Assembly: GCA_022825835.1 (NCBI GenBank)
Contig: JAJDVZ010000156.1
Location: 17,825-81,824 of the forward strand
Direction of reading: 5' to 3'
DNA from: Candidatus Latescibacterota bacterium
Lineage (GTDB): Bacteria; Latescibacterota; UBA2968; UBA8231
DNA length: 64,000 bases
Shown: positions 2,569 to 20,418 of the stretch, piece by piece
Position numbering within the stretch: the stretch's first letter is position 1
How the letters are laid out: each line of letters starts with the position of its first letter
Notes under the pieces: model-generated
Seen by the model: the letters and a program-made list of their open reading frames with translations, nothing else
What the model was told of the DNA's origin: nothing
The model's database searches: none
Program-made: the position numbers and the translations under genes

Positions 2569-3459
2569 ATGACTCGTCGCATCACAACGGCTGCTGTGGC
2601 TCTTACGTTGGGCCTAGCGGTCAACATTTCGGCGCACTCGCCCGAGGGTGCCATTTTTCCGGCCTTCCAGTGGCCAGCCGGCCTCGAGCCCGTCCTAGAC
2701 GGCGTCGGCAGCGAATACGATATCGTTCCCGAAGCGTACTGGCAGACCACCGAGCAGTTTCCCGATACCCAAGGTGGACGGGAAATAGACGCGTCCAATT
2801 TCGACGCCAAAGCCACGGTGACCTACAGCTTGGGGACCAACCGGCTCTATTTTTACAGCGAAGTATTCGACGATATCAACCGACCAGGCGATACCTGGCA
2901 AATTCTCCTCGACGCTGATCACAGCGGTGGTGAGTGCTATCCGGGTGATGAGCGCTTGGACGGCTCTCAGTGCTATCAGACCGAGACCTACAACAATATC
3001 GGCGACACGCTGTTGGGGTCGGAAATTGTCCACTTCTTCTGGGGCGCAGCGACTTGGCTGCCCGAGGAGGGCTGGTACAATGCGGTGGCCACCTTTGAGG
3101 GCGACCACTACGGTCCGGGGACGACCTGGCTAGAGATTCGTTTGGCTCCCACCGACGACATCAATCCCGCCGGTCCTGGAGAGTCGATCCTGCACGAGAT
3201 GCAAGAGAACAATATAATCGGCATCCACTACAACTGGATGGATTACGACGTCGGCTGCCGCCAAGCACGCGAAGGCGAAGAGTGCGGCGGTTGGGACGCT
3301 TTCTACAACCTGAGCCAGAGCGACATTGGCTTTAGGAACGCCGATGGCTGCAGCGACTTCTTCTTGTCGCCCGTTGATGAGAGCGTTGACTTCGGCGCTA
3401 TGACCACTTCGGTTGAAGCCACGACTTGGGGGCGGCTCAAGGCCGGTTTCGTCGATTAA
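2569..3459 (+). CDS. Secreted CBM9/DOMON-like putative carbohydrate-binding protein
   Basis: Signal peptide MTRRITTAAVALTLGLAVNISA. PVLDG...W...ATVTYSLGTNRLYFYSEVFDD resembles CBM9-like domains and the paralog at 54024-54845. The C-terminus ends in TTWGRLKAGF. SD GAAAGGAA. Confidence 0.55.
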   Translation: MTRRITTAAVALTLGLAVNISAHSPEGAIFPAFQWPAGLEPVLDGVGSEYDIVPEAYWQTTEQFPDTQGGREIDASNFDAKATVTYSLGTNRLYFYSEVFDDINRPGDTWQILLDADHSGGECYPGDERLDGSQCYQTETYNNIGDTLLGSEIVHFFWGAATWLPEEGWYNAVATFEGDHYGPGTTWLEIRLAPTDDINPAGPGESILHEMQENNIIGIHYNWMDYDVGCRQAREGEECGGWDAFYNLSQSDIGFRNADGCSDFFLSPVDESVDFGAMTTSVEATTWGRLKAGFVD

Positions 3460-3544: not shown

Positions 3545-5407
3545 ATGAAAGCCGCGATGCTTCGCCTAGCGCTGCTGTCTTTGCTGATCCCGAATTTGTC
3601 TTGGGGGCTCACCATTTATCGAGTTGGTGGCTACGAGCTTCCCCAGCCCGAATTGGCGGACAATCCAGACGTGGAGTTTGTTCAGTTGAGTTGGGAGGAC
3701 TTCGCCGCTGGAGCCGAGGGCGTGATGGTCGGCTTGGAGGTCGGCAATGAGGGACGGCTCGCCCCTGTCTTCATTCCTTCGGACGAGAATATGGCGGTAT
3801 CTTCCTTTGCCCGGGGCGGCGGTCCCGGCAGTTGGAAATACAATTTTCTCACCAAGGGCGAAGAAATCGATTTGATTGCCGACGGCGACTCAACCACTTT
3901 TCTCGACCCAGCGGTTCTAGTCGCACGCTCGGAGTCGTCGCTGGTGTACCTCGACTTGGGCGGCCGCTTCCTAGTGAATCGGGTCGTCGTCTATCCCCGG
4001 CCAAACTATCCCGACCGCTTGATCGAGGGCTATACCCTGTACTCATTGCCCAAGGGGACGATAAGGCCACAGGGCAAAAATGTAATCGCGCGGGGTATCG
4101 ACAACCGAAATCCGCGGCTCGAAATCAACTTTGTCCCTCGCCTGCTCGACCAGATACAACTCAATATCCACCAAAAAGAGGGTTGGGAAATCGCCGAGTT
4201 GGAAGTCTATGGCGAGGGGTATGTATCCAGTGCTCTGTACGCTTCTGGAGCGTTCGATCTCGGCCAGCCGTCCAGTCTGGGTGAGATCCGCTGGGCGGGC
4301 TTCCAAGATACCGGTGCCAAATTGATCCTCCGCACGCGCAGCGGCCATACGGTAGATCCCAACCGCTACTGGCGTTTTACTGGCCGTGGCGAGGAAAAAA
4401 CCTTCCGCAATGCCCGAGGTGTGCCCTTGACCGCGGCGGACTACAACAATCTGAAGGGCAACAAAGCCGAAATCACCACGGATCTGGACAATTGGAGTTC
4501 GTGGTCGGGGCCCTACGATTGGGCCGACAGTCTTGGCACGCCGATTATCTCGCCGGGTCCCCGACAATTCATCCAAATGCAGTTGGACTTCGCGCCTAGT
4601 GGGCTGGATGGTGCGGCCATCGATTTTATCGAATTCCGCGTCACGCAGCCGCCGGTGGCCGGCCGGGTGCTCGGCGAGATCTGGCCGATTGAAGTAAAGC
4701 CAGGGGAAGAGACGGCCTTTGTCTATGCCATGCGGCCGGATTTTGTCGGGGGCGAAAGCGGTTTTGATCGTTTGGTGTTGGAGACTGCCGGCCAGTTCAC
4801 CAGTGTCGATTCCGTGCGCGTCAACGAGGAATTGCAGGATTGGCGACTCGCCGAGCCTTTGGCGGACCAGCGGCTGGTATTGGAAGTGGTGCGCATGGAC
4901 CGGAGCAAGACTGGCCGCGTGGTGGAAATTTTCTTCAAGGGCCGGGTGTTCCGCTTTGGCACGGTCTTCGCTGCGCAAGTCTTCGATAGCCAACGCCCGC
5001 TAGAAGTGGGGCAGTTGGTGGAAGACGGCGATGCGACCTTCCGTCTAGACAGCAACCAGCGCTCGGTGGGGATTGAATTGGACCGCGAGATCGTCAGTGA
5101 GTTGGTGCTCAGTGCACGGGTATTCACGCCCAATGGCGATCAGGTCAACGATCAGGTCCATATCGAGTACATCCTACTCGAATTGGCCGGGACCGGAGCG
5201 GTGGAAGTGGGCATATTCGATCTGGCGGGTCGCCGGGTGCGCCAGCTATACCGGGGCGCAGACACCAGCGGTCAATACGCCCGGACCTGGGACGGCAGGG
5301 GAGATGGCGGGAGCGTGGTGGCACCGGGTCTCTATCTTTACCGAGTGCAGGTGGATACAGACGAGGGACAGACCGAACGCAGCGGACTAGTAGCCGTCGT
5401 GTATTGA
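3545..5407 (+). CDS. Secreted discoidin (F5/8 type C)-like domain protein with FlgD-Ig / T9SS type-B-like C-terminal domain (paralog 1)
   Basis: Start moved to the ATG at 3545 (MKAAMLRLALLSLLIPNLSWG signal peptide). Discoidin-like block ends in WEIAELEVYGEGY. Shared WSSWSGPY...SPGPRQFIQ block. C-terminal FTPNGDQVND...WDGRGDGGSVVAPGLYLYRV. Confidence 0.8.
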   Translation: MKAAMLRLALLSLLIPNLSWGLTIYRVGGYELPQPELADNPDVEFVQLSWEDFAAGAEGVMVGLEVGNEGRLAPVFIPSDENMAVSSFARGGGPGSWKYNFLTKGEEIDLIADGDSTTFLDPAVLVARSESSLVYLDLGGRFLVNRVVVYPRPNYPDRLIEGYTLYSLPKGTIRPQGKNVIARGIDNRNPRLEINFVPRLLDQIQLNIHQKEGWEIAELEVYGEGYVSSALYASGAFDLGQPSSLGEIRWAGFQDTGAKLILRTRSGHTVDPNRYWRFTGRGEEKTFRNARGVPLTAADYNNLKGNKAEITTDLDNWSSWSGPYDWADSLGTPIISPGPRQFIQMQLDFAPSGLDGAAIDFIEFRVTQPPVAGRVLGEIWPIEVKPGEETAFVYAMRPDFVGGESGFDRLVLETAGQFTSVDSVRVNEELQDWRLAEPLADQRLVLEVVRMDRSKTGRVVEIFFKGRVFRFGTVFAAQVFDSQRPLEVGQLVEDGDATFRLDSNQRSVGIELDREIVSELVLSARVFTPNGDQVNDQVHIEYILLELAGTGAVEVGIFDLAGRRVRQLYRGADTSGQYARTWDGRGDGGSVVAPGLYLYRVQVDTDEGQTERSGLVAVVY

Positions 5408-6324: not shown

Positions 6325-6459
6325 AATCCCCTATGGACGGTGTATAGCCATCCTAAATCCTTCACCAGACGATCCGCAGATGGACGCAGAATAGTAGAAA
6401 CAAGACGATCCGCAATCTGAATCGTTTAAGTCATGCAGGACTGTTATAAAAAGAAAAGT

Positions 6460-8580
6460 ATGAGTAGGAAAATGTACGGCCTGCTCGCCTTGGCGTTGCT
6501 GTCGTTGGCAGCCGATGCCCCAGCGCAGACAATCGCCTTGGGGGGAGAGGGGCGTGCGTGGCCGGGTGGTGGGGAAGAAATCGACCCGCAATTCCGCTTG
6601 TCCAATACTGAGTTGGCCGTTGGCAATACGCCGGGCGGCGTCATCGACTTCGCATTTGCCGAGGGGTGGATTTTTCCGCAACAGATCGACACCGGGCGGA
6701 ATCTGGCACTAGGCGCGGCCGACAGAGGCGGCGGCATGAGCTCGCCCCTGCCCTCGATCAGCCAAGAGTCGCTGGCGGCCATCATCGACGAGGATGCAGA
6801 AACGGCCTTTCGCCGCAAGGCCAGTGCCGCCGGGGAAGTGGTCATCGCCCGCGGCATTATTATGGACTTGGATTTGGGCGCGCGCTTTGGTGTCAACCGG
6901 ATCCGGTTTTTTCCGCGCAACACGGTTCGCGCCAATGAGGAGTTCAAGTTCGAAAACGACTTTATGCGAGGCTATTCTCTAGAACTGAACGACGGCAGCG
7001 AAGAGACGTCCGTAGAAGGCCGCCCGCAGTACACTACCTTCGTCCGGGTCGAGGACAATACGGATGCAGTCGTCGATTTGTCTTTGCCCCTGCAATTTGT
7101 GCGCTATGTGCGGCTGGTATCGCTGTCCAATATCGGCTTTGAAGTCGATGAGTTGGAAGTATTCGGCGCGGGCTTTGTGCCCGAAGCCCAGTACCTGTCG
7201 GATATCTTCGACTTAGGCGATCTGGCCAACTGGGGCAACCTGCGCTGGAGCGAGCGGCGCGAGGGCATAGCCGGCTTGTCGGATATTCGCGTCTTCACCC
7301 GTTCCGGCCGCGACACCACGCCCTTTGTCTTCAATCGCTTTAACGCCGATTTGCAGGAAGTGCCCTGGAAGGCGTCGGCCGAAATCAACGGCGTCTTGCT
7401 CGATGACTTGCCCATTGACGGGGCTTTTGACCAGTTCAATTCCCAACCCGAATCCGTCCGCCAGGCCCTCACCCTCTCCCAGGCCGATCACGCCAGTCTC
7501 CCCCTCCAACAAAAAGCGCCCATCCGGGACGACCTAATCAACTGGAGCAATTGGTCGCCCCCCTATCCGTTAGAGGGCACGACCCCGGCTGGTACGCCTA
7601 TTGTCTCGCCTGGTCCGCGGCAGTACTTCCAGTTCAGGATCGATTTTGTCAGCCGCGATTTTCTCGCCGCGGCCGGAGTCGGCACCCTGTCCTTTGATGT
7701 GGCCAGACCCGTGCCAGCCGAAAAAATTGTCGGCGAAATCTTCCCCCGCGACGTCGCCGCCGGAGAGGTGGTGGAGTTCACCTATGGGGCGCGGGTGGGA
7801 GTCCGGCCGCAGGATACGGGTTTCAATCGCTTTGAAATATCCTCGCCGAGCATCTTTGAAAAAATCGGTCGCATAGAGGTGCTCAACGCCCGGGACGAGC
7901 TTATCGCGGGGGAGGATTTTGACGTGGCCCTCGCGGCGGCGCAATTGCCGCTGCACAAGGGCGAATTCAGCATTGAAAGCGCCGAGGATGGCCGCTTTGT
8001 GGTGGGCTTTCCACCTGTCGGCGATGGCGATTTGCTCAAGATCACTTTTACGACCTCGGTCCTGCGCTTTGGGCAGGGATTTGCCGGTCGGGCTTGGCTG
8101 GTCGATCCCAGCGTGGCAGACGAAGGGCAATTGCCGCAGTTGGTCGTGCCGGGCAATGCAGCCCAACTGGGAGCCGCAGATGTGGATCCCAGGCCGGTGG
8201 GCAGCGAGGACCTAACCGCGGTGGATAACAATCTAGCGGTGCGCATTGCCATCAAGGGATCGCTGCTGGGCCAGCTCCAAGTGACCCCCGAGATTTTTAC
8301 TCCCAACGGCGACGGAATCAACGATGCGGCTGCGGTCCATTTCGAGGTGCTGCGGCTGGGCGTAGGTGCTCCGCTGAGGGTGGAGATTCGCGATCTAAGC
8401 GGGCGTTTTATTGCCGCGGCCTTTGCTGACGACCGAGCTAGCGGTCGCTTTACAGCCACTTGGGATGGGCGGGATGGCAACGGCGCTGTGGTGGCACCTG
8501 GCATCTATTTGGTCCGCGTCTTGCTCGATACCAATGTCGGCTCCGAGGCAAAAACCGGCCTCGTTAGCGTGGTGTACTGA
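6460..8580 (+). CDS. Secreted discoidin-like domain protein with FlgD-Ig / type-B-like C-terminal domain (paralog 2)
   Basis: Signal peptide MSRKMYGLLALALLSLAADAPAQ. The start could also be 6433 or 6472. Discoidin-like block ends in VDELEVFGAGF. WSNWSPPY...SPGPRQYFQFR block. C-terminal FTPNGDGINDAA...WDGRDGNGAVVAPGIYLVRV. Confidence 0.8.
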   Translation: MSRKMYGLLALALLSLAADAPAQTIALGGEGRAWPGGGEEIDPQFRLSNTELAVGNTPGGVIDFAFAEGWIFPQQIDTGRNLALGAADRGGGMSSPLPSISQESLAAIIDEDAETAFRRKASAAGEVVIARGIIMDLDLGARFGVNRIRFFPRNTVRANEEFKFENDFMRGYSLELNDGSEETSVEGRPQYTTFVRVEDNTDAVVDLSLPLQFVRYVRLVSLSNIGFEVDELEVFGAGFVPEAQYLSDIFDLGDLANWGNLRWSERREGIAGLSDIRVFTRSGRDTTPFVFNRFNADLQEVPWKASAEINGVLLDDLPIDGAFDQFNSQPESVRQALTLSQADHASLPLQQKAPIRDDLINWSNWSPPYPLEGTTPAGTPIVSPGPRQYFQFRIDFVSRDFLAAAGVGTLSFDVARPVPAEKIVGEIFPRDVAAGEVVEFTYGARVGVRPQDTGFNRFEISSPSIFEKIGRIEVLNARDELIAGEDFDVALAAAQLPLHKGEFSIESAEDGRFVVGFPPVGDGDLLKITFTTSVLRFGQGFAGRAWLVDPSVADEGQLPQLVVPGNAAQLGAADVDPRPVGSEDLTAVDNNLAVRIAIKGSLLGQLQVTPEIFTPNGDGINDAAAVHFEVLRLGVGAPLRVEIRDLSGRFIAAAFADDRASGRFTATWDGRDGNGAVVAPGIYLVRVLLDTNVGSEAKTGLVSVVY

Positions 8581-8597
8581 ACGGGAGGGCGTTTTCT

Positions 8598-11327
8598 ATG
8601 TATGGCAAATACGGGTTGGTTTTCCTGCTCCTCAGCAGCTTGATGAGTCCAGATTGGCTCCAGGCGCAGGATTACGGCTCTCGCCTCGGAGTGCAGCGCG
8701 GTGGTCGGGTGTCGTATGAACCTCGGGGCCCAGGCGTCCTCTTTGACGCTCTCGATCCAACCCTCAAACGCTGGTACGTGCCCCAGGAACTCTACAACGA
8801 GTACCGCTGGCGGCCTTGGCAGTACAACAACTACGCCCGCGAGAATTACCAGCGCTACGTCAATACAGCCATAGAGGGCAACTACTTCTACGACCTATAC
8901 GGCAATTTTGTCACCCAAGGTTGGCTGATATACGACATGCGCCGGCAACAACCGGCCGAGTTCGGCAGCACCGTATTCAAGGACAGCCGCTATGGCTCGT
9001 GGTTTAACAACGTCTTGATCGCCTCCGACAGCAAGGGCCAGAATCACTATGCGGTGACCATTGGCAATAGCATCCGCACGACGCTGACGCCGCTGACTTT
9101 TTCCAAGCCGGCCTTCAACGGCATCCAAGCCGATTTTGCCTCGGACAAGTACCAAGCTACGGTGCTGATGTCGCGCATTAGTGCCCCCAATCAAGTGGGC
9201 GTCGCCGTTGGTGCCGTGCCCACGGGCGTGTCGAATACCACCGACTTTCTCGGCGGCCATTTCACTGCCCAAGTGGGCGATTTCGTCACCTTGGGGACCA
9301 CCTATATCAACGCCCATCAGTCCAATACGCTGTTGGAGAGCTTTTTAGGCGGTCGTGCCCAAGGCGATTTGACCGTCGATCAAAACAGCAGCGCCGTCAC
9401 CCGCATCGAAATCCTGCTCGAAGACGACTCGCCGGCCGACGGTCGGGGAGGGGCGGCGCTGTTTTCGCAAAATATCATCATCACGGCGATCCGGGATTTC
9501 AATACCGGCGAGCGCGAAACCGTCACGGGCAAGGAGATCAACTTTGCGCCTCTCGTCCAGGGCGGTTTCCAGCGGCAGGGGGGCTTTTTGGCTGCGGACG
9601 GGGACGAGACCATTCGCCTCATCTACGACTTTTCCGACCGCGCCTATCTGGGCCCCGATCCCTCGACCATTGTAGAAGTCACTTTCGAGTTGGTGCTGGC
9701 CAACGACTACAAGGTGTCGATGGCTTCCAATCGCCAACTGAGCCGCGCCGGAGAATTCCATCCCCTGCTAATCGCCCGGGCCGACGGCAATGTGCGCGAC
9801 ACTTCGAATCAGCGGCTCGTGCGCTTTGACTACGGTCTGCCCACAGCCAACCAAATTTTTGGTTTCCACCTCGCCACGACGAGCTTCTTGGGCTTTGATA
9901 CCTATGCCGAGTACGCGGTCAACCACCAGTTTAGGAAGTACCCCAACCCCAATGTAGAAGGCGACCACGAATCGGCTTCGCGGCGCGCCGACGCTTGGAT
10001 GCTAAACGCGGCGAAAAACGCCTATCCGTGGTTTGTCTATGGCGAGGCCTTCAGCATGGGCAAAGACTACGCGACCAGCATTTTTCTCAGCGACCAGCGG
10101 GGCGTAATCGACTATGCGACCCAGAACCGATTCTTCGAGTTCGTCGAGGACAACGACGACCAAGACCGCACCCCCGACTGGGGGCGCGCCTTTCAGGCCG
10201 GTCCCGATATCGAGGTCTTTCCAGGCTGGGACGAGAACAACGATTTCATCAACGACTTCAACCAAAATGACAACCGCACGCGCGAGAATCAGTTGCCCGA
10301 TTACGAAGAACCCTTCCTGCGCTATCACAGCGACCGGCCCGAGTTTCTCTTTGGCATTGATCTCAACAACAACGGCTGGATCGACCGCTTTGAGAACGAC
10401 ACCGAGCCAGACTTCCCCTACAAACGCGACCATCGGGGGTACAATGCCTATGGCGGTGTCCATCTGACGCCGGAGACTCGGCTGACTGCGGGGCGCACCC
10501 GGCAGTGGTTGATTGCGTCTGCGCGGCGCAGCGAGACCAGTTACGCTCTCTTCACCTTTGACAAGGATATCGCCGACTTGGGGCGCATCCGGGTTTTTGA
10601 ACATCTGAAACGGGCGCACGACAATATAGCCGACGACCGCATTGCGCCCCTGCCCTTTTTCCGCGGGCCGCAGCTACCCGTCCAAGATGTGCTGTCGGCC
10701 CGAGACACTTGGATCAACACCGTGTGGCTGGGCTTCAGCTACACGGGCACGGCCAACCTGACGGTGGAAAACAAGCTCAAATACGAATTTTTTCATCAAT
10801 TGCTCGATGATGAGGTGCTGGCAGAGTTGGGCGCTCGGCGGGACTCGCGCTTTTTCGGGCTAATCAATAAAGCCGAGTATTCCCTCAATGTAGCAGGGGT
10901 GAAATTGATGCCACGGGTCAAAAGCGAGTACCTGATTGACTCGCCCTTTCTGCGCTCCGAAGACGAGCGCAAGCAGTGGACTCCGAGTTTGTTTTTCATC
11001 ACCCGCCTGCCGCTGATGCCGCGCACCCAGATCGAAGCGGGCTTGGAACAGAGCTACCGCTGGGAGTTGCTAAGCGACGAGAAGGCCCTAGTTGAGACTG
11101 GGGCCGAAGGAGTGGGTACCGGGGATCAGCGCGAGACGATTTTGGCAATTCAGGCGACCAATATCACCGACTATTTGGGCTATAAACTGATTACTCAGCT
11201 CGGTTTCCAATACGAGCGCCGGGCCGCGGAAATCGTCGAAAAGAAAAACACTGATTTCGGCTTGGGAAACAGGACCTCGACCGGTTTCACAACCTTTATC
11301 ACGGTGTACGCCGGTCTGGGTCTCTAG
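8598..11327 (+). CDS. Large (909 aa) signal-peptide protein, putative outer-membrane beta-barrel with EF-hand-like acidic insert (paralog A)
   Basis: N-terminal signal peptide ends in LQAQ. Long stretches of alternating hydrophobic/polar pattern. Acidic block at 10138-10458 includes DLNNNGWIDRFE. SD GGGAGGG. I recognise no named family. Confidence 0.75.
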   Translation: MYGKYGLVFLLLSSLMSPDWLQAQDYGSRLGVQRGGRVSYEPRGPGVLFDALDPTLKRWYVPQELYNEYRWRPWQYNNYARENYQRYVNTAIEGNYFYDLYGNFVTQGWLIYDMRRQQPAEFGSTVFKDSRYGSWFNNVLIASDSKGQNHYAVTIGNSIRTTLTPLTFSKPAFNGIQADFASDKYQATVLMSRISAPNQVGVAVGAVPTGVSNTTDFLGGHFTAQVGDFVTLGTTYINAHQSNTLLESFLGGRAQGDLTVDQNSSAVTRIEILLEDDSPADGRGGAALFSQNIIITAIRDFNTGERETVTGKEINFAPLVQGGFQRQGGFLAADGDETIRLIYDFSDRAYLGPDPSTIVEVTFELVLANDYKVSMASNRQLSRAGEFHPLLIARADGNVRDTSNQRLVRFDYGLPTANQIFGFHLATTSFLGFDTYAEYAVNHQFRKYPNPNVEGDHESASRRADAWMLNAAKNAYPWFVYGEAFSMGKDYATSIFLSDQRGVIDYATQNRFFEFVEDNDDQDRTPDWGRAFQAGPDIEVFPGWDENNDFINDFNQNDNRTRENQLPDYEEPFLRYHSDRPEFLFGIDLNNNGWIDRFENDTEPDFPYKRDHRGYNAYGGVHLTPETRLTAGRTRQWLIASARRSETSYALFTFDKDIADLGRIRVFEHLKRAHDNIADDRIAPLPFFRGPQLPVQDVLSARDTWINTVWLGFSYTGTANLTVENKLKYEFFHQLLDDEVLAELGARRDSRFFGLINKAEYSLNVAGVKLMPRVKSEYLIDSPFLRSEDERKQWTPSLFFITRLPLMPRTQIEAGLEQSYRWELLSDEKALVETGAEGVGTGDQRETILAIQATNITDYLGYKLITQLGFQYERRAAEIVEKKNTDFGLGNRTSTGFTTFITVYAGLGL

Positions 11328-11329
11328 TC

Positions 11330-14062
11330 GTGGCACGTGCGGTTATTATCACACTCGCCCTATTGGTACTCAATCCTGGCGATCTCCGCGCCGAGGAATA
11401 CGGCAATCGCTTGGGGCAGGGGCACGGCGTCGGACTGCAATATGTCACGCGCAGCCGCAGCACGCTCATCAACGCCATCGATCCAAGGGTGCAGAAGTGG
11501 TACATGCCCCAAGAATTGTACAGCGAATACCGCCTGAAGCAGTGGGAGTACACCAACTATTCGAGGAATTTCTATCGCAGCTATTTATCGGCGACGCTCG
11601 AAGGAGATTACTTCTACGATCTGTTTGGTCGTCGCGTGATGCACGGGTGGTTGGTCTATGAGGCGCGAAAAGAACAACCGAGGGCCTCAGAGGGCAATAG
11701 TTTGCTCAAGGGCCTGCCCTACGGCGGCAATTTCCAGAACCTGATCATTGCCTCTGACTCCAAGGGACAGCACCATTTCTCTTTGACGATAGGCGATGAG
11801 ATCGCTACGACGCTCACGCCGATGACGTTCCGCAAGGCCGTCTTCAACGGCGTCCAGTTTCACTATCTGCGGGATCGCTACGCTGGTACGGTGCTGTTGT
11901 CGCGGATCAGCGCGCCGCTGGTTACTACCTCGTCGTTCGACGTGGGGCTGACCAATGCCACGGAATTGACCGCTGGGCGTCTCACCGCCGAGGTGGGCGA
12001 ACACGTCACGGTCGGCGGCACGTACGTCAACAGCCACAATAGCCGCGCCACCTTGGAGCGCTTTGCCGGCAATATGTTCAAGGGATTTCTCACCACCGAC
12101 CAAGCCGGCAACGCCGTTACTTTTGTCGAGGTGCGCCTCGGCGACGATTCGCCCGAAGATGGCGAGAATGGGGCCGTACTTTTCGCCGAGAACATCATCC
12201 TAAAGGATGTAAACGGCCATCAGTGGAATGGCGCACAGGTCGGTTATGTGCCGTCGCGCACAGGCGGTGAACTGCGCGACGGTTTTGCAGTGGCAGACGG
12301 CGGCGACCGCATTGTGCTGCGCTACAATCTCGAAGCCTTGGCCGCGGCACGGGTCGTGGAGGTAGAAGGCGAGCCTATGTGGCTCCCAACTACGGTCGAT
12401 TCCCTCGCCGAGGTGGGCTTTGAATTGGTCTTGGCCAACGATTATCGAGTTGAGATCGCTTCGAATCGCCAAACCAATATAGAGGCGCAGCCGGTCTTCC
12501 TCTTGGTCGAGAGCGCGCCGGGCAATGTCGGCGATACTTCCAACCGGCGCACCGTGCGTTTTGACTACGGTCTGCCCACGGCTAACCAGATCGCTGGCCT
12601 CACCTTGGAAGTGCGCCAAGTGTGGGGTTTTGACCTGTACGCCGAATTAAACGTCAACCACCGCTTTGCGCAGTACCCCAGCCCTTTGCTGACGACCCAC
12701 CGAACGTCCGCTAGACAGGCCCAAGCGTGGATGGTCAATCTAGCGCAAATACGCGCGCCCTATTTTTTGCACGGCGAAATTTTCAGCATGGACCCGGATT
12801 ACACCACCAGCGTCTTTATGACCGAGACCAACGGACGGGTCGATTACGTCGATCAAGAGTCCTTTTTGTACGACTATGTTGATGACAACGACGATTTGGA
12901 TCGCTTGCCGGACCAAAAACGCCGGTGGCAGTCATCGTGGCTGGGAGAAACTATTTCTACTGGTGAGGGGGCAGCCGATCCGGCCGTGTTCCCCGGTTGG
13001 GACGAAAACGGCGATTTCATTTCCGATTTCAATCAGAACGATACGCCGACGCGCCGCAATGCACTGGCCGATTACGAAGAGCCCTTTTTGCGCTTCAACG
13101 TCGATCGACCCGAGTTCCTTTTTGGCGTTGACATGAACAACAACGGCTGGATCGACCGCTTTGAAGACGATGTTGATCCCGATTATCCCTACGACCGGAA
13201 TCTGCGGGGATACAATGTGTACGGCGGCGTCGATGTCGTGCCCAAAGTACGCCTGACCGTGGGCCAGACGCGGCAATGGCAGTTGTCAACTAAGCGGCGC
13301 AGTGAGGCTGCGTATGGTCTTTTCGTCTTGGAACGGGACTGGCCCGGCATTGGTCGCCTGCGCGTCTTTGAGCATTTGAAGAAAGTGCGCGACAATATAG
13401 CAGACGACCGCTTGGCGGCCTCGCAGGCCATTGGCGCTCAGCAGGCCGTGGTGGAAGATCCGCTAGCAGCCCAGAACACTTGGATCAACACCGTGTGGCT
13501 GGGGTTCGATTACACCGGCCTAGGCGCTCTGCAGGTAATCAACAAATTCAAGTACGAAATCTTGCACCAGCGCGCCGAGCAGCAGGTGCTCACCGAGCGC
13601 GGTGCCCGCCATCGCGGGCGTTTTTTGGGTGTGGTCAACAAGGCCGATTACGGCCGCAATATTGGCCGAATACACATCCGGCCGCGCCTTAAAAACGAGT
13701 TCTTCTGGGACGTTCCCTATCTCGAACGGGCAAGCGAGCGCCAGTGGTGGAAACAGATGCTGTCGTTCAGCGTGCGCTTCCCCATTCTCAAGGAGTCGTG
13801 GATTGAGACAGGCGTTGAACAGGTTTTTATCACTGACCTAGCGACGGACGCAAAGCAAATGGCTGCGGGCGAGCGCACGGGCGATGGCCAACAGACGATC
13901 CTAGCGCTCCAGTTGACTAACTACGGTACGTACATGGGCTACCGCTCGATCATGCAGTGCGGCTTGCGCTTTGATCGGGACCAGTTTGAGCGCGTTGACT
14001 GGAAGTCCGAAACCAAGACGGGCAGCCTCGTCTTTGTCTCGTTCTACGCTGGTCTGGAGTAG
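11330..14062 (+). CDS. Large (910 aa) signal-peptide protein, tandem paralog B of 8598-11327
   Basis: GTG start 2 nt after the upstream stop. Collinear similarity to paralog A from the N-terminus (EEYGNRLG vs QDYGSRLG) to the C-terminus (FYAGLE vs VYAGLGL). Acidic block at 12875-13228 includes DMNNNGWIDRFE. Confidence 0.75.
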   Translation: MARAVIITLALLVLNPGDLRAEEYGNRLGQGHGVGLQYVTRSRSTLINAIDPRVQKWYMPQELYSEYRLKQWEYTNYSRNFYRSYLSATLEGDYFYDLFGRRVMHGWLVYEARKEQPRASEGNSLLKGLPYGGNFQNLIIASDSKGQHHFSLTIGDEIATTLTPMTFRKAVFNGVQFHYLRDRYAGTVLLSRISAPLVTTSSFDVGLTNATELTAGRLTAEVGEHVTVGGTYVNSHNSRATLERFAGNMFKGFLTTDQAGNAVTFVEVRLGDDSPEDGENGAVLFAENIILKDVNGHQWNGAQVGYVPSRTGGELRDGFAVADGGDRIVLRYNLEALAAARVVEVEGEPMWLPTTVDSLAEVGFELVLANDYRVEIASNRQTNIEAQPVFLLVESAPGNVGDTSNRRTVRFDYGLPTANQIAGLTLEVRQVWGFDLYAELNVNHRFAQYPSPLLTTHRTSARQAQAWMVNLAQIRAPYFLHGEIFSMDPDYTTSVFMTETNGRVDYVDQESFLYDYVDDNDDLDRLPDQKRRWQSSWLGETISTGEGAADPAVFPGWDENGDFISDFNQNDTPTRRNALADYEEPFLRFNVDRPEFLFGVDMNNNGWIDRFEDDVDPDYPYDRNLRGYNVYGGVDVVPKVRLTVGQTRQWQLSTKRRSEAAYGLFVLERDWPGIGRLRVFEHLKKVRDNIADDRLAASQAIGAQQAVVEDPLAAQNTWINTVWLGFDYTGLGALQVINKFKYEILHQRAEQQVLTERGARHRGRFLGVVNKADYGRNIGRIHIRPRLKNEFFWDVPYLERASERQWWKQMLSFSVRFPILKESWIETGVEQVFITDLATDAKQMAAGERTGDGQQTILALQLTNYGTYMGYRSIMQCGLRFDRDQFERVDWKSETKTGSLVFVSFYAGLE

Positions 14063-14072
14063 GAGGATTTCT

Positions 14073-16586
14073 ATGACGAGCAGACATTGGGCGAGCTGGA
14101 TTTTAGTCGTCGCGCTCGGTTGCCGAGCCGCAGTGGCTCAAGAGGGGTACGCGATCCAAGGCAACCGCATTGTCACCCAAGGTGCAGACCAGTGGCACCA
14201 ATGGATTTTTCCCTTTGGCACGGTCGATATCGCCTCCGAAGGCGCTAGACCGCACTTTGTGGCGTCGGAACTCAATGCCTGCCTCAATGCGCACCGCTTT
14301 CCCCTATGGGCCGACGAAGATGAAAAGGAAGGGGGGATCTTGTCGGCTGGATCGGGGCTGGCTGGAGCAGTGCGCATCCTCGACGGCAATGTAGATACCT
14401 ACTGGGAGCCCGATCTAGACGATCCACAAGATCTGTGGTGGGTGGCGATTGACTTGGGGCGGATCGTATCGGCCAAGCACATTGTTTTGCGCTTTGCCCG
14501 GGAAGGTGAAGGCGATCCGTTTTACCAATTTCGCCTGATGGTGGCCGACGGCGAAGGCAAAGTAGGCGATAATCTCGATTATCACTTGGTCGGCAAGACC
14601 GAGCGGCCCAATGTCGATCAACGCGAATTTTCGTTTGATCTACAGCCCTTTCAAAGTGCCGATCCCCATTTTACCGGCGATGCCTTTCGCTTTGTGCAGG
14701 TGGTGATGACGGACAGCCGCTTGGGCAAGGCCGAGGAAGTGGACAGCTTGGCCTATCAGAGTTTGCCAGCGGCTTTGCAGGGCGCAGTGGAGTACTTCGG
14801 TCGCAGTCGCAGCGGGAGCGAGTGGCTTCTCGACAGGGAGGCCTATGAACTGCTCGATCAGTCCGAGCGGGGTTCAATCCGCTATTACCGCCGCGAACAA
14901 CCGCGCCTCGCCGAGGTCGAAGTCTGGACCTTGGGCGAGAATATATCGCTGGGGGCGATCCAGCGGGGCGGCACGGTGGAAGGGCACGGCTTTAATCCCA
15001 CCCGCAGCCTCGATGGGGACTACACAACTTGGTACGGTCTGCAGCAGAGTTACACCCGCGAGGCGGCCGAGCCCGAGCGGCAAGTCCTCTTTGACCTAGG
15101 GGCTTTGTACTGGCTGGATCTATTCCACTTTCTGCCGCCAGCGGCCCGCAGCGCCGGCGGCACGCTGGGCAATTATCGGATGAAACTGTCGGACGGTTCG
15201 CTCGCCCCGGACGGGAGCTTGCAGTGGGTGCAGGTCGAAGAGCGGCGCGTCTTCCGCCAGCCTCGGTTCCAAGAGGTGCGCTTTGAGTTGCAAAAGGTCC
15301 GCTACATCGCCTTCGACTACCTAGTGGGTAGGGGGGGCAACAGAGCTGGATGGTCCGAACTCCAAGCCTACGGCGAGGGCTATCAGCCGGAGGTGGTGTT
15401 GGAATCGCCGTTGATCGATTTGAGCAGTAGCATGAATTTGACCACGCTCCACTGGGAGGCCGACGTCCCGCCCGGTACGCGCATTGAGGTGGCCACCCGC
15501 ACCGGCGATCAGACCAAAGTCAACACCACGTATTATCGGAGCGACGGCGCCGAGGTGGACAAAAAAGCGTACCATAAATTGATTGCCGCGCTCAAGGGGG
15601 ATTCGCTCAATGTGTTGGTCGTTGACGAAGAAACTTGGAGCCCTTGGAGCAAACCGCACTTGCTGTCAGGCCAAGTCATCACTTCGCCGTCGCCGCGCCG
15701 CTTCCTCAAGACCCAGGTGCGGTTGAGTAGCGACGACCCGCAAAATGCCGTGCTATTGCGGCGCTTGGAGGTGTCGTTTTCTCAACCGTGGGTGGGTAGA
15801 GCTTTGGGCGAGGTATTCCCGGTGCAAGTGGAACATCCGGGAGAGGACACGCGGCTGACCTTTTTCGTGCGGCCTGTGCGGCGGGCGGGCGATCCGGGCA
15901 TTGACGAGGTGTTATTGGTCAGTTCAGGGGAGACGCCGCTGGCGCTACGGGAGGTACGTCTTGGCTCGGCAGCAGAAGTAGCTGCCGGAGGTGGCGAAGC
16001 GCTGGGCCTAGATGTGGTAGAAGTGCTCGAGACCGCGACCGATTCGCTGTGGGTACGCCTACCCGACGCGGTTGACCGCAACGAGGTCCTCGCGGTTGAT
16101 GTATTGACCGCGCTATTTGGCCACGGCGTTTCCTTTGCCGGACGGGTGGGCAACCGCGATGATTCGGGAACTTGGCAATTGGTCGAAGCCGATCAAGAGG
16201 CTGTGGCCGAAGTGGAAAGCGGCGTCCTGCGGGTGTTGGTGCCCTCGGGTCAGGTGGGTTTGGCAGACCTGACGCTGGACACAGCGGTTGTGACGCCCAA
16301 TGGGGATGGGATCAACGACGCAGCGCGGATTGGCTTTGAAGTGCTGCGCTTGGATGGAGCCCAGGTGGTGATCGTCTCGGTGCACGATCTGGCCGGTCGC
16401 CGCCTTTGGACCCTGGAGCAGGTGCGCGAGCGGGCGAGCGGGCAATACGAGGTGGTTTGGGAGGGGGTGGATGATGCGGGCGAGCGGGTGCCGCCGGGGA
16501 CGTATATTTTGCGGGTGGAGGTGGATGCGGATGCGCGCAGCAATGTGCGGACTAAGATAATGCGACTAGCTCACGTGGTGTATTGA
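14073..16586 (+). CDS. Secreted protein with two discoidin-like domains and FlgD-Ig / type-B-like C-terminal domain (paralog 3)
   Basis: Start moved to the ATG at 14073 (SD AGGAGGA at 14061; signal peptide MTSRHWASWILVVALGCRAAVAQ). LDGNVDTYWEP...WWVAIDLG... and LDGDYTTWYG...SELQAYGEGY. WSPWSKPH...SPSPRRFLK block. C-terminal VTPNGDGINDAA...WEGVDDAGERVPPGTYILRV. Confidence 0.8.
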   Translation: MTSRHWASWILVVALGCRAAVAQEGYAIQGNRIVTQGADQWHQWIFPFGTVDIASEGARPHFVASELNACLNAHRFPLWADEDEKEGGILSAGSGLAGAVRILDGNVDTYWEPDLDDPQDLWWVAIDLGRIVSAKHIVLRFAREGEGDPFYQFRLMVADGEGKVGDNLDYHLVGKTERPNVDQREFSFDLQPFQSADPHFTGDAFRFVQVVMTDSRLGKAEEVDSLAYQSLPAALQGAVEYFGRSRSGSEWLLDREAYELLDQSERGSIRYYRREQPRLAEVEVWTLGENISLGAIQRGGTVEGHGFNPTRSLDGDYTTWYGLQQSYTREAAEPERQVLFDLGALYWLDLFHFLPPAARSAGGTLGNYRMKLSDGSLAPDGSLQWVQVEERRVFRQPRFQEVRFELQKVRYIAFDYLVGRGGNRAGWSELQAYGEGYQPEVVLESPLIDLSSSMNLTTLHWEADVPPGTRIEVATRTGDQTKVNTTYYRSDGAEVDKKAYHKLIAALKGDSLNVLVVDEETWSPWSKPHLLSGQVITSPSPRRFLKTQVRLSSDDPQNAVLLRRLEVSFSQPWVGRALGEVFPVQVEHPGEDTRLTFFVRPVRRAGDPGIDEVLLVSSGETPLALREVRLGSAAEVAAGGGEALGLDVVEVLETATDSLWVRLPDAVDRNEVLAVDVLTALFGHGVSFAGRVGNRDDSGTWQLVEADQEAVAEVESGVLRVLVPSGQVGLADLTLDTAVVTPNGDGINDAARIGFEVLRLDGAQVVIVSVHDLAGRRLWTLEQVRERASGQYEVVWEGVDDAGERVPPGTYILRVEVDADARSNVRTKIMRLAHVVY

Positions 16587-16595
16587 GGCGCAGGG

Positions 16596-18410
16596 GTGGG
16601 CCGCCAAGTCCAACGATTGACAGCTATCTTGGCGCTTGGCTGGTCTATGGGCTGCCAAAGCGAGCCGCCGCCGGTGCGTTTTACCGACGCCACCGACCAA
16701 GCGGGCCTTTCTTTTATCCACGAAAACGGTGCCGCCGGGCAGTACTTTCTCATCGAGACTATGGGTGCAGGTGGGGCGCTGGCCGACTTTGACGAGGACG
16801 GCGACTTAGATATCTATCTGGTCAACGGTTTCGATTTAAGAGGCTTGGACGCCCCGCCGATCAACTTGGTGCATCGAGAAGACGGCCTCTATTGGGTGGC
16901 CCCATCGGCCCCCAGTGCCGCGGACCGCTCTGCGGACCCAGCCGATTACGCGGTCGCGCTGGCCCCCGTAGCTGGGGTGGAACCAAGGGGCAATGCGCTC
17001 TACCGCAACGAAGGGACTGGTACTTTTGTCGAAGTGCCCAATGCTGGTGGGGCTGCGGACCTAGGTTATGGCATGGGCGTGGCTGTGGCCGATGCCGACA
17101 ACGACGGCGATCAAGACCTGTACGTGACCAACTACGGGCCCAATGCTCTCTATTGCAACCGAGGGGACGCCACCTTCACCCGCAGCCGTGGCGTCGAGGC
17201 CCCCCAATGGAGCGCCAGCGCTGCCTTTTTCGACCGCGACAACGATGGTGCGCTCGATCTGTACGTGGTCAATTATCTCGATTTTACCCTAGCTACCAAC
17301 AAAATCTGCGGCGGCTTCATCCGCACCGACGACGCGGGCTTGCGCGCGATTGGGGAAGATACGCGCTCGTACTGCGCGCCCAGCGAGTACGGGGGCGTGC
17401 CCGATGTGCTCTATCACAACGAGGGGGAAGGCACTTTTACCGATGTATCCATTGCCGCGGGTATTGCCAATTCCAATGGCAAGGGCTTGGGCGTGGTGGC
17501 TTGGGACTGGAACGAGGACGGCTACCAGGATCTATACGTGGCCAACGACGGGGTGGCCAACTTCCTCTACCAAAACGCCGGCGATGGCACCTTCCGCGAG
17601 ATAGCCCTACAAGCCGGGGTGGCCTACAATGTGCGCGGCCAAGCCGAGGCTGGCATGGGGGTGGACATCAGTGATTGCGACCGCGATGGCGATTGGGATC
17701 TGTTCGTCACCAATTTCTCCCGCGAAACCAATACGCTCTACCGCAATGAAGGAACCTACTTCAAAGATGTGACTGCGACGTCGGGCTTGGGCCGGCCGAG
17801 TTGGCTCTATTTGGGCTTTGGCACTGCGTTTTTCGATTACGACCACGACGGCGACCAAGATCTGTACGTGGCCAACGGCCACGTCTTGGACCGCGTCCAT
17901 ATACTGCAACCTGGGGTGCGCTACGCCCAAGAGCATCAGCTATTTCGCAACGACGGCTCCTGCCGCTTCGCCGATGTGGCAGACAGTGCGGGGAGTTGGT
18001 TCGCGCAAGAGCAGATAAGTCGAGGGTTGGCCCAAGGCGATTGGGACGGTGACGGCGATTTGGACCTGCTGGTGACCAATTGCGGAGGCCCAGCCAAGCT
18101 AGTGCGCAATCACGACGGCAACGGGCGCAATTGGATCTCAATCAAGCTGGTGGCTACAGCGGCCAATCGGGATGCGGTGGGAGCCGAGGTGCGGCTGGTG
18201 ACTGGTTCGTTGGAACAGCGCCGCCTAGTGAGAAGTGGGAGCAGCTATTTATCGGCTGGCGACCGGCGACTCCACTTTGGCTTGGGAGGCCACGAGCGCA
18301 TTGACCTGCTGGAAGTCCAATGGCCGGATGGGACCATTGAGGGATTTCGGGATCTATCCGCCGAACAAAATTTGCTAATTGAGCAAGGACGGGGTGTGCA
18401 GGATGAATAG
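16596..18410 (+). CDS. CRTAC1-type FG-GAP/VCBS repeat + ASPIC/UnbV domain lipoprotein
   Basis: GTG start with a lipobox-like GWSMGC. Repeated DxDxDGDxDLYV loops (DEDGDLDIY, DNDGDQDLY, DRDGDWDLF, DHDGDQDLY, DGDGDLDLL). C-terminal NWISIKLV...GAEVRLV...GSSYLSAGDRRLHFGLG...VQWPDG. Confidence 0.85.
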   Translation: MGRQVQRLTAILALGWSMGCQSEPPPVRFTDATDQAGLSFIHENGAAGQYFLIETMGAGGALADFDEDGDLDIYLVNGFDLRGLDAPPINLVHREDGLYWVAPSAPSAADRSADPADYAVALAPVAGVEPRGNALYRNEGTGTFVEVPNAGGAADLGYGMGVAVADADNDGDQDLYVTNYGPNALYCNRGDATFTRSRGVEAPQWSASAAFFDRDNDGALDLYVVNYLDFTLATNKICGGFIRTDDAGLRAIGEDTRSYCAPSEYGGVPDVLYHNEGEGTFTDVSIAAGIANSNGKGLGVVAWDWNEDGYQDLYVANDGVANFLYQNAGDGTFREIALQAGVAYNVRGQAEAGMGVDISDCDRDGDWDLFVTNFSRETNTLYRNEGTYFKDVTATSGLGRPSWLYLGFGTAFFDYDHDGDQDLYVANGHVLDRVHILQPGVRYAQEHQLFRNDGSCRFADVADSAGSWFAQEQISRGLAQGDWDGDGDLDLLVTNCGGPAKLVRNHDGNGRNWISIKLVATAANRDAVGAEVRLVTGSLEQRRLVRSGSSYLSAGDRRLHFGLGGHERIDLLEVQWPDGTIEGFRDLSAEQNLLIEQGRGVQDE

Positions 18411-20418
18411 CCCGTCCTCGGCAGCCTCTATGGGCCGGCGCGAGTTGGGGATGGCAGGCGGTCTCTTGCTCTTGGCTTTGGTCGTGCGGCTGGTCTATCT
18501 GGAGCACAGCCAAGACAATCCCTTTTTCTCGGCACCGGTAGTGGACGCCCACTCCTATGTGGCGCAGGCGCGGCAGCTCGTTGAGGTGTCTTGGGTGGGA
18601 GACAAGCCCTTTTGGCAGCCGCCTTTATACCCCTATTTTCTCGCCCTGATCTACGCCGTTTCCGGCGACTTGTTCTGGACGCCCCGATTTATTCAGTTCC
18701 TCTTGGGGGTAGCCTCCTGTGCCTTGGTGTTTGGCATCGGTCGGCAGGTATTTGGTACCCGAGTCGGTCTCTTAGCTGGGGCTATGGCCTGTCTATACGG
18801 ACCCTCTATCTATTTTGAGGGAGAGTTGCTACCCACCGCGCTGGCCGTTTTTCTCAATCTCCTGTTGCTCTTTGTCCTGCTCCAGCCCGACTGGGGACGG
18901 GGACAGGCTCTAGTCTCGGGCCTCGTCCAAGGCTTGGCCATAGTCGCCGTGCCCAATGCGGCCCTGTTGGCTCCTTGCGCCTGCCTGTGGTACTGGAAAA
19001 GCACCGAGCGAGCCGTGCGGAGCAAGCTGGTCTGGTGCCTGCTTTTTGCGGCGACCGCCAGTGCAGTGGTCGGCGCAGTAACGGCGAGAAATTGGGTGGT
19101 CAGTGGCGAGTTCATCCCCTTGTCTTGGAACGGCGGTGTAAATTTCTACTTGGGCAACCATCCCGATTACGACCGCTTGGTGGGGATCCGCCCAGGGCCG
19201 GAATGGGAGGGCTTAATGGAGCAGCCGATGGCAGCGGGCTATGAGGGATACGCCGAGCGGTCGGCCTATTTCTACCGACAAGCCGGCGACTGGATCGCCA
19301 GTGCGCCTGGGGATTTTGTGCGGTTGTTGGGGTACAAGGTGTTTTTGTTGGCGCGGGGCGAGGAGATCAAGCGCAACCAAGACGTGTACTTCGCCCGCAC
19401 CTATTCCTCGCTGATGAGCGTCTTGCTGTGGAAAACCCACCACTTTGCCTTTCCTTTTGGGCTGCTGGGGCCCTTGGCTGCTGTGGGTATAGTGCTGGCT
19501 TGGCGGCACCGACCCGAGGCGAGTTTGCTGCTACTCTGCACCGGCGCGTACAGCGCCTCGCTCCTGCTCTTTTTTATAACCGGACGCTATCGCCTGCCCT
19601 TGGTGCCGCTGCTGCTGCTCTTTGCCGGGTACGCCCTGATCTGGCTGGTGCAACAGGGGCAGGCCCGACAGTGGCGTCCCTTGGGGATCGGTGTGGCTTT
19701 GGTCGTCTTGCTGGGGATCGCCGCCAACGCTGGCCTGCGTCCGGTCGATCCCTTGGCCGACGCGGAAATACACTTTGATTTGGGACGCGTCCAAGCCCAA
19801 CAGGGACAGTATGCGGCTGCGGTGCACTCCTTTGGGACAGCCGTGCAACTCGATCCAAATCACCTGCGCGCCCACCACAATCTGGGCGCGGCGCTGGCGG
19901 TGATGAAGCGCTACGACGAGGCCGAGGCAGTTTATCAGCAGGCCCTGGCGCAAGCGCCCGAAGATCGGGGGCTGCACCTCAACCTGGCGGCTCTGTACCG
20001 AGCTACGGGACGCTACGAGCAAGCGGTGGAGCACTACCGCCGAATTTTGGCAATAAAGGCCGACGCAGCGGTTTTTCTGGCGTTGGGAAGGGTTTATAAG
20101 AGAATGGGGGTAACAGAGCAGGCCCGGGAAGCCTTTGCGGCGGCGCTACGTGGCGACGAAGTGCGGGCGCAGGCGGCCAATGAACTGGGCTTGATCGAGG
20201 TCCGACAAGGGGCGTTGGAGCGGGCGGTTGATTATTTTGCCATGGCACTAAAAGCCGCGCCCGGCAATCACTTGATTGCCTTTAATTTGGGGGCGGCCTA
20301 CCACGACTTGGGCCGATTCGACAAGGCGGCCGAGTTCTATCGCCTAACCCTGAGCTTGGCCCCTGAGTACGCCAAAGCCCAGCGCGCGTTAGCGCGATTG
20401 CAGCGGCATCAGCCCTGA
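18403..20418 (+). CDS. Polytopic GT39/ArnT-like membrane protein with C-terminal TPR repeats
   Basis: The ATG at 18403 overlaps the upstream stop (ATGAATAG). The N-terminal half has many TM helices plus PLYPYFLALIY and FGIGRQVFG, typical of GT39/PMT_2-like proteins. The C-terminal third has at least 5 TPR-like A/Y/L-rich repeats. Confidence 0.7.
   Translation: MNSPSSAASMGRRELGMAGGLLLLALVVRLVYLEHSQDNPFFSAPVVDAHSYVAQARQLVEVSWVGDKPFWQPPLYPYFLALIYAVSGDLFWTPRFIQFLLGVASCALVFGIGRQVFGTRVGLLAGAMACLYGPSIYFEGELLPTALAVFLNLLLLFVLLQPDWGRGQALVSGLVQGLAIVAVPNAALLAPCACLWYWKSTERAVRSKLVWCLLFAATASAVVGAVTARNWVVSGEFIPLSWNGGVNFYLGNHPDYDRLVGIRPGPEWEGLMEQPMAAGYEGYAERSAYFYRQAGDWIASAPGDFVRLLGYKVFLLARGEEIKRNQDVYFARTYSSLMSVLLWKTHHFAFPFGLLGPLAAVGIVLAWRHRPEASLLLLCTGAYSASLLLFFITGRYRLPLVPLLLLFAGYALIWLVQQGQARQWRPLGIGVALVVLLGIAANAGLRPVDPLADAEIHFDLGRVQAQQGQYAAAVHSFGTAVQLDPNHLRAHHNLGAALAVMKRYDEAEAVYQQALAQAPEDRGLHLNLAALYRATGRYEQAVEHYRRILAIKADAAVFLALGRVYKRMGVTEQAREAFAAALRGDEVRAQAANELGLIEVRQGALERAVDYFAMALKAAPGNHLIAFNLGAAYHDLGRFDKAAEFYRLTLSLAPEYAKAQRALARLQRHQP

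Follow-up and report, generated by a model that had tools for sequence, protein, structure and literature searches.

A lineage-restricted family of large outer-membrane-type barrels and its gene module in Latescibacterota

Latescibacterota are widespread, uncultured bacteria, and to our knowledge nothing is known of their cell envelope. In the genome of a Candidatus Latescibacterota bacterium (assembly GCA_022825835.1) we analysed a window of 64,000 nucleotides, which comprises positions 17,825 to 81,824 of the forward strand of contig JAJDVZ010000156.1. Two adjacent genes of this window, termed barrel A and barrel B below, raise two questions: which kind of protein do they encode, and what could these proteins do together with the products of the neighbouring genes? 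We found that A and B represent a previously unnamed, lineage-restricted family of large outer-membrane barrels, which is covered by no described family, and that the barrel is the best-conserved component, the conserved core, of a gene module. Concerning the function we consider it possible, with a probability of roughly 0.45, that the barrel anchors or translocates three surface proteins sharing a type of C-terminal domain, that a dedicated chaperone takes part, and that a putatively Ca2+-binding block of the barrel is used for docking or gating.

Barrels A and B form a family of their own

The two genes are arranged in tandem, with a gap of 2 nt between the stop codon of A and the start of B.

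8598..11327, plus strand: barrel A, 909 amino acids (aa), ATG start; putative signal peptide, aromatic-rich N-terminal domain and a β-barrel of about 22 strands; A-type clade
11330..14062, plus strand: barrel B, 910 aa, GTG start; B-type clade, ancient paralogue of A

A previous reading of the sequence alone had described the two open reading frames as collinear yet diverged paralogues with an Asp/Asn-rich block conserved better than the rest. Both statements held. The proteins align over their full length with 431/928 identities (46%, E=0 in BLASTP). In 40-residue windows the identity amounts to 70–75% across A 535–614 / B 548–627 and to 28–65% elsewhere, and this peak falls inside the acidic block at 10138–10458 (A 514–621) and 12875–13228 (B 516–633). 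The block is also the best-conserved stretch among 142 family members from 85 loci, so that its conservation is no quirk of the A/B pair. The block consensus quoted before and the segments DLNNNGWIDRFE / DMNNNGWIDRFE were recovered in the acidic blocks of the two proteins.

In both N-termini LQA–QD or LRA–EE comes after a hydrophobic stretch; judged by eye from the sequence, the N-termini look like Sec signals. The C-termini read ...YAGLGL in A and ...YAGLE in B and, as had been pointed out, lack a terminal aromatic residue. The barrel ends follow the form ...[FY]AG[LV]x(x); the aromatic residue stands four to five positions before the end, and a C-terminal aromatic β-signal is absent.

AlphaFold2 (AF2), run with an alignment of 66 sequences, returned an all-β model of A with a mean predicted local distance difference test score (pLDDT) of 72.6 and a predicted template modelling score of 0.73; the barrel strands reach a pLDDT of 82–94. 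From the DSSP string of this model 22 long strands were counted between residues 150 and 906. The connectors of these strands alternate between 2–6 and 2–171 residues, and the members of the longer set, save one, have at least five residues. Because the connector lengths alternate between short and long, the model shows the pattern of an outer-membrane barrel with short periplasmic turns and long extracellular loops. The even strand number, the short turns and the long loops are those of a closed barrel, closure itself being not visible from the DSSP string. Two further regions of A are distinguished in addition to the acidic block.

8670..9044, plus strand: N-terminal domain of A, aa 25–149; Tyr/Trp-rich, conservation 0.64–0.71, AF2 pLDDT 30–50, no Pfam match
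9324..9836, plus strand: β-sandwich insert of A, aa 243–413 (about 170 residues); about 10 strands, pLDDT 82–93, no Pfam match

The N-terminal domain could be periplasmic or could form a plug. The β-sandwich insert is situated between barrel strands 5 and 6, in barrel loop 3, and the acidic block fills barrel loop 5, a connector of 124 residues (488–611) between strands 9 and 10. By strand count both loops would lie on the extracellular side of the AF2 model, in agreement with the former suggestion of a possibly extracellular insert.

The model was compared with the PDB using Foldseek. The top 50 matches listed were all outer-membrane barrels, with probabilities of up to 1.0, and included MtrB, Deinococcus SlpA, LptD, the FimD/PapC ushers, TonB-dependent transporters and porins. 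Since the matches listed are solely large outer-membrane barrels, the fold class is that of an outer-membrane barrel, which suggests an outer-membrane location for A and B. The resemblance ends at the level of the fold, with query-normalised template modelling (TM) scores of 0.14–0.25 and 6–10% identity. The best matches (E 3e-9 to 5e-7) were MtrB (6r2q_B), Deinococcus SlpA (8ae1_A) and LptD, which have the architecture of a very large barrel in common with A; the TM-scores to these proteins are, however, 0.14–0.30 at 6–10% identity, and the cytochrome, the SLH domain or the LptE partner that goes with them is lacking here. A Foldseek search against viral structures gave weak porin-like noise only.

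We then considered whether A and B could belong to a described family, as a confident hit to a TonB-dependent receptor, to LptD or to a DUF5916-type protein would have explained their architecture. None of these families matched. The barrels have no Pfam or NCBIfam match at E<=1, the PorP_SprF profile included, and a PDB sequence search was negative with the single sequence, with a profile of the 66-sequence family and with the block alone. Neither the isolated block nor the N-terminal domain, the β-sandwich insert or p296, a neighbouring protein described below, matched Pfam at E<=10, and a profile of p296 likewise matched no PDB sequence. The homologues found in a collection of 5.8 billion proteins are all devoid of Pfam domains and, where the source gives a name, are called 'hypothetical protein'. 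Membership in the TonB-dependent receptors was rejected, as neither Plug (PF07715) nor TonB_dep_Rec (PF00593) matched at E<=1 and the TM-scores are low; a true TonB-dependent transporter encoded in the same window (22135–25026) served as positive control and strongly matched both the Plug and the barrel model. LptD, ushers and DUF5916 were rejected likewise, with no Pfam matches, TM-scores of 0.14–0.25 and root-mean-square deviations above 17 Å. The new outer-membrane family that had been supposed from the sequence is thus borne out by the missing Pfam, NCBIfam and PDB sequence matches, a confident all-β model and listed structural matches that are outer-membrane barrels throughout.

When one genome was scanned for each GTDB species, 543 relatives were found, nearly all of them in metagenome-assembled genomes labelled Latescibacterota or Gemmatimonadota; the family is small and almost confined to Latescibacterota. 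Two Latescibacterota chromosomes, OZ244790.1 and OZ220721.1, are 98–99% identical to the window. On single chromosomes at least four to five separate barrel loci are found; OZ220721.1 has at least four, with at least seven barrel genes. With at least seven genes on one chromosome of 6.3 Mb, the family is one of the expanded components of the Latescibacterota envelope, and it is nameless in the databases searched.

For a closer comparison 142 barrels were extracted from 85 loci (L001–L085), 56 of which have full 10-kb flanks and were used for the module counts. The sequences fall into one A-type clade (86 sequences, mean identity 54%), four B-type clades, which are 39–47% identical to the A-type and to each other, and one divergent clade at 35–37%. 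A is closer to the A-type genes of distant genomes than to B. This rules out a recent tandem duplication and shows the A/B pair to be ancient. B-type genes, where they occur, always follow an A-type gene downstream on the same strand, and in one contig family a SurA-like gene is placed between the two.

The tandem arrangement had been taken as a hint to a heteromeric pair, and it had been asked whether homologues always occur in tandem. They do not: two barrels are encoded in 37 of the 56 loci, a single A-type barrel in 18 and three barrels in one. The pair is ancient and its order of A before B is fixed, yet the modules with a single barrel exclude an obligatory heteromer, so that an A–B heteromer is possible but not required. 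A variant module (L070, L073, L076, L079 and L085) has the order c871 – divergent barrel (35–37% identical to A and B) – c715 – A-type barrel – c664, the neighbouring genes being named as in the list further below; here a cargo gene separates the two barrels instead of their being adjacent.

The acidic block and its putative metal loops

The block contains two copies of a loop sequence, which are designated loop 2 and loop 3 of the block and are not to be confused with the barrel loops.

10138..10458, plus strand: Asp/Asn-rich block of A, aa 514–621; best-conserved part of the protein, unmodelled by AF2
10230..10271, plus strand: loop 2 of A, DENNDFINDFNQND, A 545–558; D545, N547, D549, D553 and Q556 invariant
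10359..10400, plus strand: loop 3 of A, DLNNNGWIDRFEND, A 588–601, EF-hand-like; D588, N592, D596, R597, F598, E599 and D601 invariant, N590 in 65/66 sequences
12875..13228, plus strand: Asp/Asn-rich block of B, aa 516–633
13001..13042, plus strand: loop 2 of B, DENGDFISDFNQND
13130..13171, plus strand: loop 3 of B, DMNNNGWIDRFEDD

The block is made up of Asp to 17%, Glu to 10%, Asn to 12% and aromatic residues to 18%, and its net charge is about -18. In the alignment of the 142 sequences the fraction of the majority residue is 0.78–0.87 at A 541–615 versus 0.34–0.74 elsewhere, and the block is retained in all six sequence clades. Such conservation in an extracellular loop is unusual. Queried with nothing but the block, phmmer found 236 matches only among 1.84 billion cluster representatives. 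Those of about 830–1,060 aa hold the block mostly at residues 475–770 or thereabouts, and the shorter ones resemble gene fragments. The block therefore looks private to the barrel family. With about 100 residues it is a compact, family-private and strictly conserved segment, which makes it a clean target for studies of Ca2+ binding and structure and a specific sequence marker of the family.

The block is internally repetitive: A 545–558 and A 588–601 align without gaps as D-x-N-N-[DN]-x-x-x-D-x-x-[QE]-N-D. The family shows the same pattern of 14 residues, D-x-N-N-[DN]-x-x-x-D-x-x-[EQ]-[ND]-D, in two copies and in the same register. Each of the two loops is preceded by a segment of the form hydrophobic-x-G-x, and a third acidic run, V-[DE]-D-N-D-D-Q-D, is found at A 516–523. 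In the 66-sequence alignment, called A1 in the following, positions 1, 3, 5, 9 and 12 are invariant or nearly so in both loops. These are the positions of the oxygen ligands in loops of the EF-hand type, and in loop 3 they are at least 99% conserved among the 142 sequences. Position 12 is Gln in loop 2 and Glu in loop 3. The family-wide invariance of the ligand positions favours metal binding.

The sequence-only reading had gone further and named the segment a canonical EF-hand loop. The invariant ligand positions 1, 3, 5, 9 and 12 stood up to the comparison, but the glycine at position 6 did so in part: A, B and the B-type clades keep it, and only 27/66 sequences of A1, which is almost entirely A-type, have it. 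That the block forms a canonical helix-loop-helix EF-hand and senses Ca2+ is most improbable. The 12-residue loop of A and B does have D at position 1, N at 3 and 5, G at 6, I at 8, D at 9 and E at 12. Yet the strict PROSITE pattern PS00018 matches 0/142 sequences, the EF-hand, dockerin and TSP3 profiles do not match the block at a threshold as loose as E<=10, neither of two AF2 runs predicts helices beside the loops (with low confidence in this region), prolines come after the loop, and the second copy has Gln at position 12.

The loops are better described as DxDxDG-type loops in a non-helical context. Ca2+ loops of this type, found in EF-hands, dockerins and integrin/FG-GAP proteins, are said to have been treated by Rigden and Galperin in 2004. 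The assignment to this class is suggested by the register of the loops, which also fits the loops of an FG-GAP protein encoded downstream of the barrels. Acidic or amide side chains at positions 1, 3, 5 and 9 and the Glu at position 12 of loop 3 are shared with the class; the lack of a helix-loop-helix or propeller context, the variable Gly6, the Gln12 of the second copy and the absence of a profile match set the block apart from it.

The N-terminal domain and the block, the two most conserved parts of the protein, are exactly the parts for which AF2 gives no model. Segments that are conserved yet unmodelled in this way present the pattern expected of sequences folding only with ions or partners.

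The gene module around the barrels

The sequence-only reading had recognised the tandem of the two barrels correctly. What it had missed is that the tandem is embedded in a conserved gene module present in several copies per genome. In the window the following genes surround A and B.

488..2215, minus strand: SurA-like periplasmic chaperone with two parvulin peptidyl-prolyl isomerase domains (Pfam); in 42/56 modules
2569..3459, plus strand: p296, secreted protein of about 300 aa; in 51/56 modules, no Pfam or PDB match
3545..5407, plus strand: c664, third paralogue; its C-terminal domain passes the cutoff of Pfam CHU_C (type B of T9SS, the secretion system of type IX)
5433–6302: MBL-fold gene, in operon order between c664 and c715; in 3/56 loci
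6433..8580, plus strand: c715, secreted, with a FlgD_ig / CHU_C-like C-terminal domain, ends in ...VVY; 17 nt before A
14073..16586, plus strand: c871, F5/8 type C (discoidin) domain and FlgD_ig / CHU_C-like C-terminal domain; 10 nt after B
16596..18410, plus strand: FG-GAP/ASPIC (CRTAC1-like) protein, accessory, in 20/56 modules; 9 nt after c871
18379..20418, plus strand: PMT_2 glycosyltransferase-like and TPR protein, accessory, in 13/56 modules

The gene order looks like that of an operon, namely c664, MBL-fold gene, c715, A, B, c871, FG-GAP/ASPIC and PMT_2-TPR, with p296 and the SurA-like gene of the opposite strand upstream. The short intergenic gaps of 17, 2 and 10 nt suggest that c715, A, B and c871 are cotranscribed, and another gap of 9 nt leads to the FG-GAP/ASPIC gene. 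A scan of positions 2000–21500 for promoters and terminators gave counts no higher than in shuffled sequence.

The proteins c664, c715 and c871 are paralogous, and each of them carries an Ig-like FlgD_ig / CHU_C domain at its C-terminus. In addition, c871 scores above the Pfam cutoff for the F5/8 type C domain. With CHU_C (PF13585, cutoff 27 bits) c664 scores 41.5 and is above the cutoff, whereas c715 with 21 and c871 with 25 are below it; with TIGR04131 (cutoff 35) all three reach scores of 13–22 and stay below. Judged from these scores, the C-terminal domains may be called T9SS type-B-like. The terminal residue of these proteins is Tyr in 196/200 cases, within the consensus v-x-v-a-Y-COOH (89/89, 60/62 and 47/49 in the three families). 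A terminal motif resembling a β-signal is therefore borne by the presumed cargo and not by the barrels, which have no terminal aromatic residue.

The module recurs in several gene orders throughout the phylum. C-terminal-domain proteins adjoin the barrels in 56/56 loci; 55 of these loci encode three or more and 45 exactly three. The position of c715 relative to the barrels is kept, as the same type, in most loci. The MBL-fold gene was dropped as a member of the module owing to its rarity, and glycoside hydrolases or other enzymes do not recur in the modules. Measured against the proteins of the window, the median identity is 51% for A and 42% for B; the values are 35–39% in the case of the C-terminal-domain proteins, 31% in that of p296 and 26% in that of the chaperone. 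As most modules own a chaperone copy and this copy is the least conserved component, the chaperones seem to be specific for their clients rather than housekeeping SurA proteins.

Near its C-terminus p296 has a conserved T-W-G-[RQ]-I-K motif, and its N-terminal 'LDGxLxEWD ... DADHSGG' may recall CBM9/DOMON-like domains. The FG-GAP/ASPIC protein, encoded about 2.5 kb downstream of the barrel pair, has seven Ca2+-type loops of the form D-x-[DN]-x-D-G-x-x-D-[LI]-[YF].

Possible roles of the barrel

We return to the question what the barrel could do within this module. According to the reading that we prefer, the SurA-like chaperone would escort its clients across the periplasm, and the barrel, alone or as an A–B pair, would hold or pass the C-terminal domains of the three surface proteins and in this way display them on the cell. 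The block in barrel loop 5, stabilised by Ca2+, would be the docking or gating element. Most likely the acidic insert would fold round several Ca2+ ions and so make a rigid and strictly conserved structure, a platform or gate placed above the barrel mouth or within it.

By analogy, the PorP/SprF system may be regarded as the closest precedent in logic. PorP/SprF-like barrels anchor the T9SS type B C-terminal-domain proteins of Bacteroidota (PMC9143113, PMC12618676); the PorP/SprF outer-membrane barrel is encoded adjacently to the proteins that it holds on the surface (PMC9143113). In both systems the barrel gene adjoins genes of secreted proteins with an Ig-like C-terminal domain of the CHU_C / 'FTPNGDGIND' type, and in both each cargo set appears to have its own barrel, with several sets per genome. 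The differences are considerable, however. There is no similarity in sequence or profile, and the barrel described here, with 909 aa and two large inserts in its loops, is roughly threefold larger. Furthermore, a module comprises three cargo paralogues and, usually, a SurA-like chaperone, and its cargo has an invariant terminal Tyr.

Several points weigh against the anchoring or translocating role. The functional link proposed between the barrel and its neighbours is drawn from the gene neighbourhood, and the barrel may be an anchor or a translocon alike. The barrel has no detectable similarity to PorP/SprF, to ushers or to Slam. The topology was derived from the DSSP string and not from coordinates. 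A crude test for the alternation of a hydrophobic face on the predicted strands, which are long and reach out of the membrane, for this reason had no clear outcome either way. As the loci were picked by similarity to A, the counts are biased towards A-type genes. Finally, AF2 models the block with a pLDDT of 37–70 in the full-length run and of 31–56 in the fragment A 459–660 (alignment of 123 sequences). Because AF2 fails on the block in both runs, no metal geometry is readable, and for the Ca2+-binding insert supposed previously it is the invariant ligand positions which make binding of Ca2+ by the block probable.

In its most far-reaching form the anchoring or translocating role would mean that the barrel or barrels, the three Tyr-ending proteins, p296 and the SurA-like chaperone constitute an unrecognised system of Latescibacterota for the assembly or secretion of surface proteins, which we regard as doubtful. 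The family-specific barrel itself would then be translocon and anchor in one. The cargo would dock with its C-terminal v-x-v-a-Y strand by β-augmentation, and the Ca2+ block would be the gate or the docking platform. In modules with both barrels, A and B would form a heteromeric twin pore. In the literature searched, nothing was found on Latescibacter* together with T9SS or type IX secretion. Should the module be a device for surface display or secretion, it would be a new route by which proteins are placed on the surface of a diderm, in the FCB group, and this route would be akin to the PorP/SprF-type B branch of the T9SS in its logic and not in its sequence.

We considered three other explanations of the module. 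First, the barrel could be a nutrient-uptake channel in a Sus-like surface complex, that is, a pore that is independent of TonB or gated otherwise. The three discoidin-domain proteins and p296 would be its surface ligand-binding partners, as SusD/E/F are to SusC. Every copy in the genome would be devoted to a different substrate, with a binding site ordered by the Ca2+ loop. The Ca2+-ordered extracellular loops of BtuB would be a parallel. This explanation is unlikely in our opinion. In its favour are the following points: the module is present in several copies per genome, the partners are more diverged than the barrel, and there are carbohydrate-binding domains of the F5/8 type C among them, just as the multi-copy SusC loci encode surface proteins with carbohydrate-binding modules. 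Also the 22 strands, which follow an N-terminal domain of about 125 aa here and of about 125–150 aa in the comparison, recall the TonB-dependent transporters, and the latter are among the Foldseek matches. But neither Plug nor TonB_dep_Rec matches even at E<=1, no TonB box was recognised, a SusD-like partner is lacking, and the TM-scores are 0.15–0.21. Moreover, no enzymes, glycoside hydrolases included, recur in the modules, and Sus systems are not known for a SurA-like chaperone of their own or for C-terminal domains that are type-B-like.

Second, the barrel could be a dedicated translocon, similar to ushers, Slam or two-partner secretion, which exports the three C-terminal-domain proteins independently of a T9SS and is served by the SurA-like protein as cognate chaperone in the periplasm. 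This reading sharpens the role proposed above, and we find it unlikely. A chaperone gene is present in 42/56 modules, the remaining 14/56 having no SurA-like gene within 10 kb. The invariant C-terminal v-x-v-a-Y of the cargo resembles a β-augmentation signal. With the chaperone-usher systems (FimD/PapC), which are among the Foldseek matches, the module shares a large barrel with an inserted β-sandwich domain, a dedicated periplasmic chaperone and clients with Ig domains in the same operon. On the other hand, the TM-scores to ushers are only about 0.2, the Usher profile does not match, the chaperone is a parvulin of the SurA type and not PapD-like with an Ig fold, and the insert appears to be extracellular by strand count, unlike the usher plug.

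Third, it is very unlikely that the barrel is a structural outer-membrane protein or a general porin whose acidic loop binds divalent cations bridging lipopolysaccharide or a surface layer, with neighbours that are functionally unrelated to it. Cation-binding acidic loops are common in outer-membrane proteins, and the envelope-tethering barrel SlpA is one of the top Foldseek matches. However, the barrel stands in strict synteny with the same set of partner families in 56/56 loci, in clades that are 35–54% identical and in several gene orders, and a functional coupling is for this reason hard to avoid.

Some further genes of the window were observed in passing. Tandem paralogous proteins with DUF6785+DUF6784 (665 and 655 aa) are encoded at 57685–59682 and 59690–61657, where the AT skew is -0.25 to -0.31. 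In the loci L001 and L003 the same family directly adjoins the barrel module, a hint of a looser association. The TonB-dependent receptor at 22135–25026 (minus strand; CarboxypepD_reg, Plug and barrel; 962 aa) lies 8 kb downstream of the barrels, near an aquaporin gene (21256–22059) and genes of M55 and M19 peptidases (25122–27006). At 47405–49687 (minus strand) a protein of 759 aa consisting nearly entirely of WD40 repeats (at least 11) is encoded between two sets of ABC sugar-transporter genes, which is an unusual placement.

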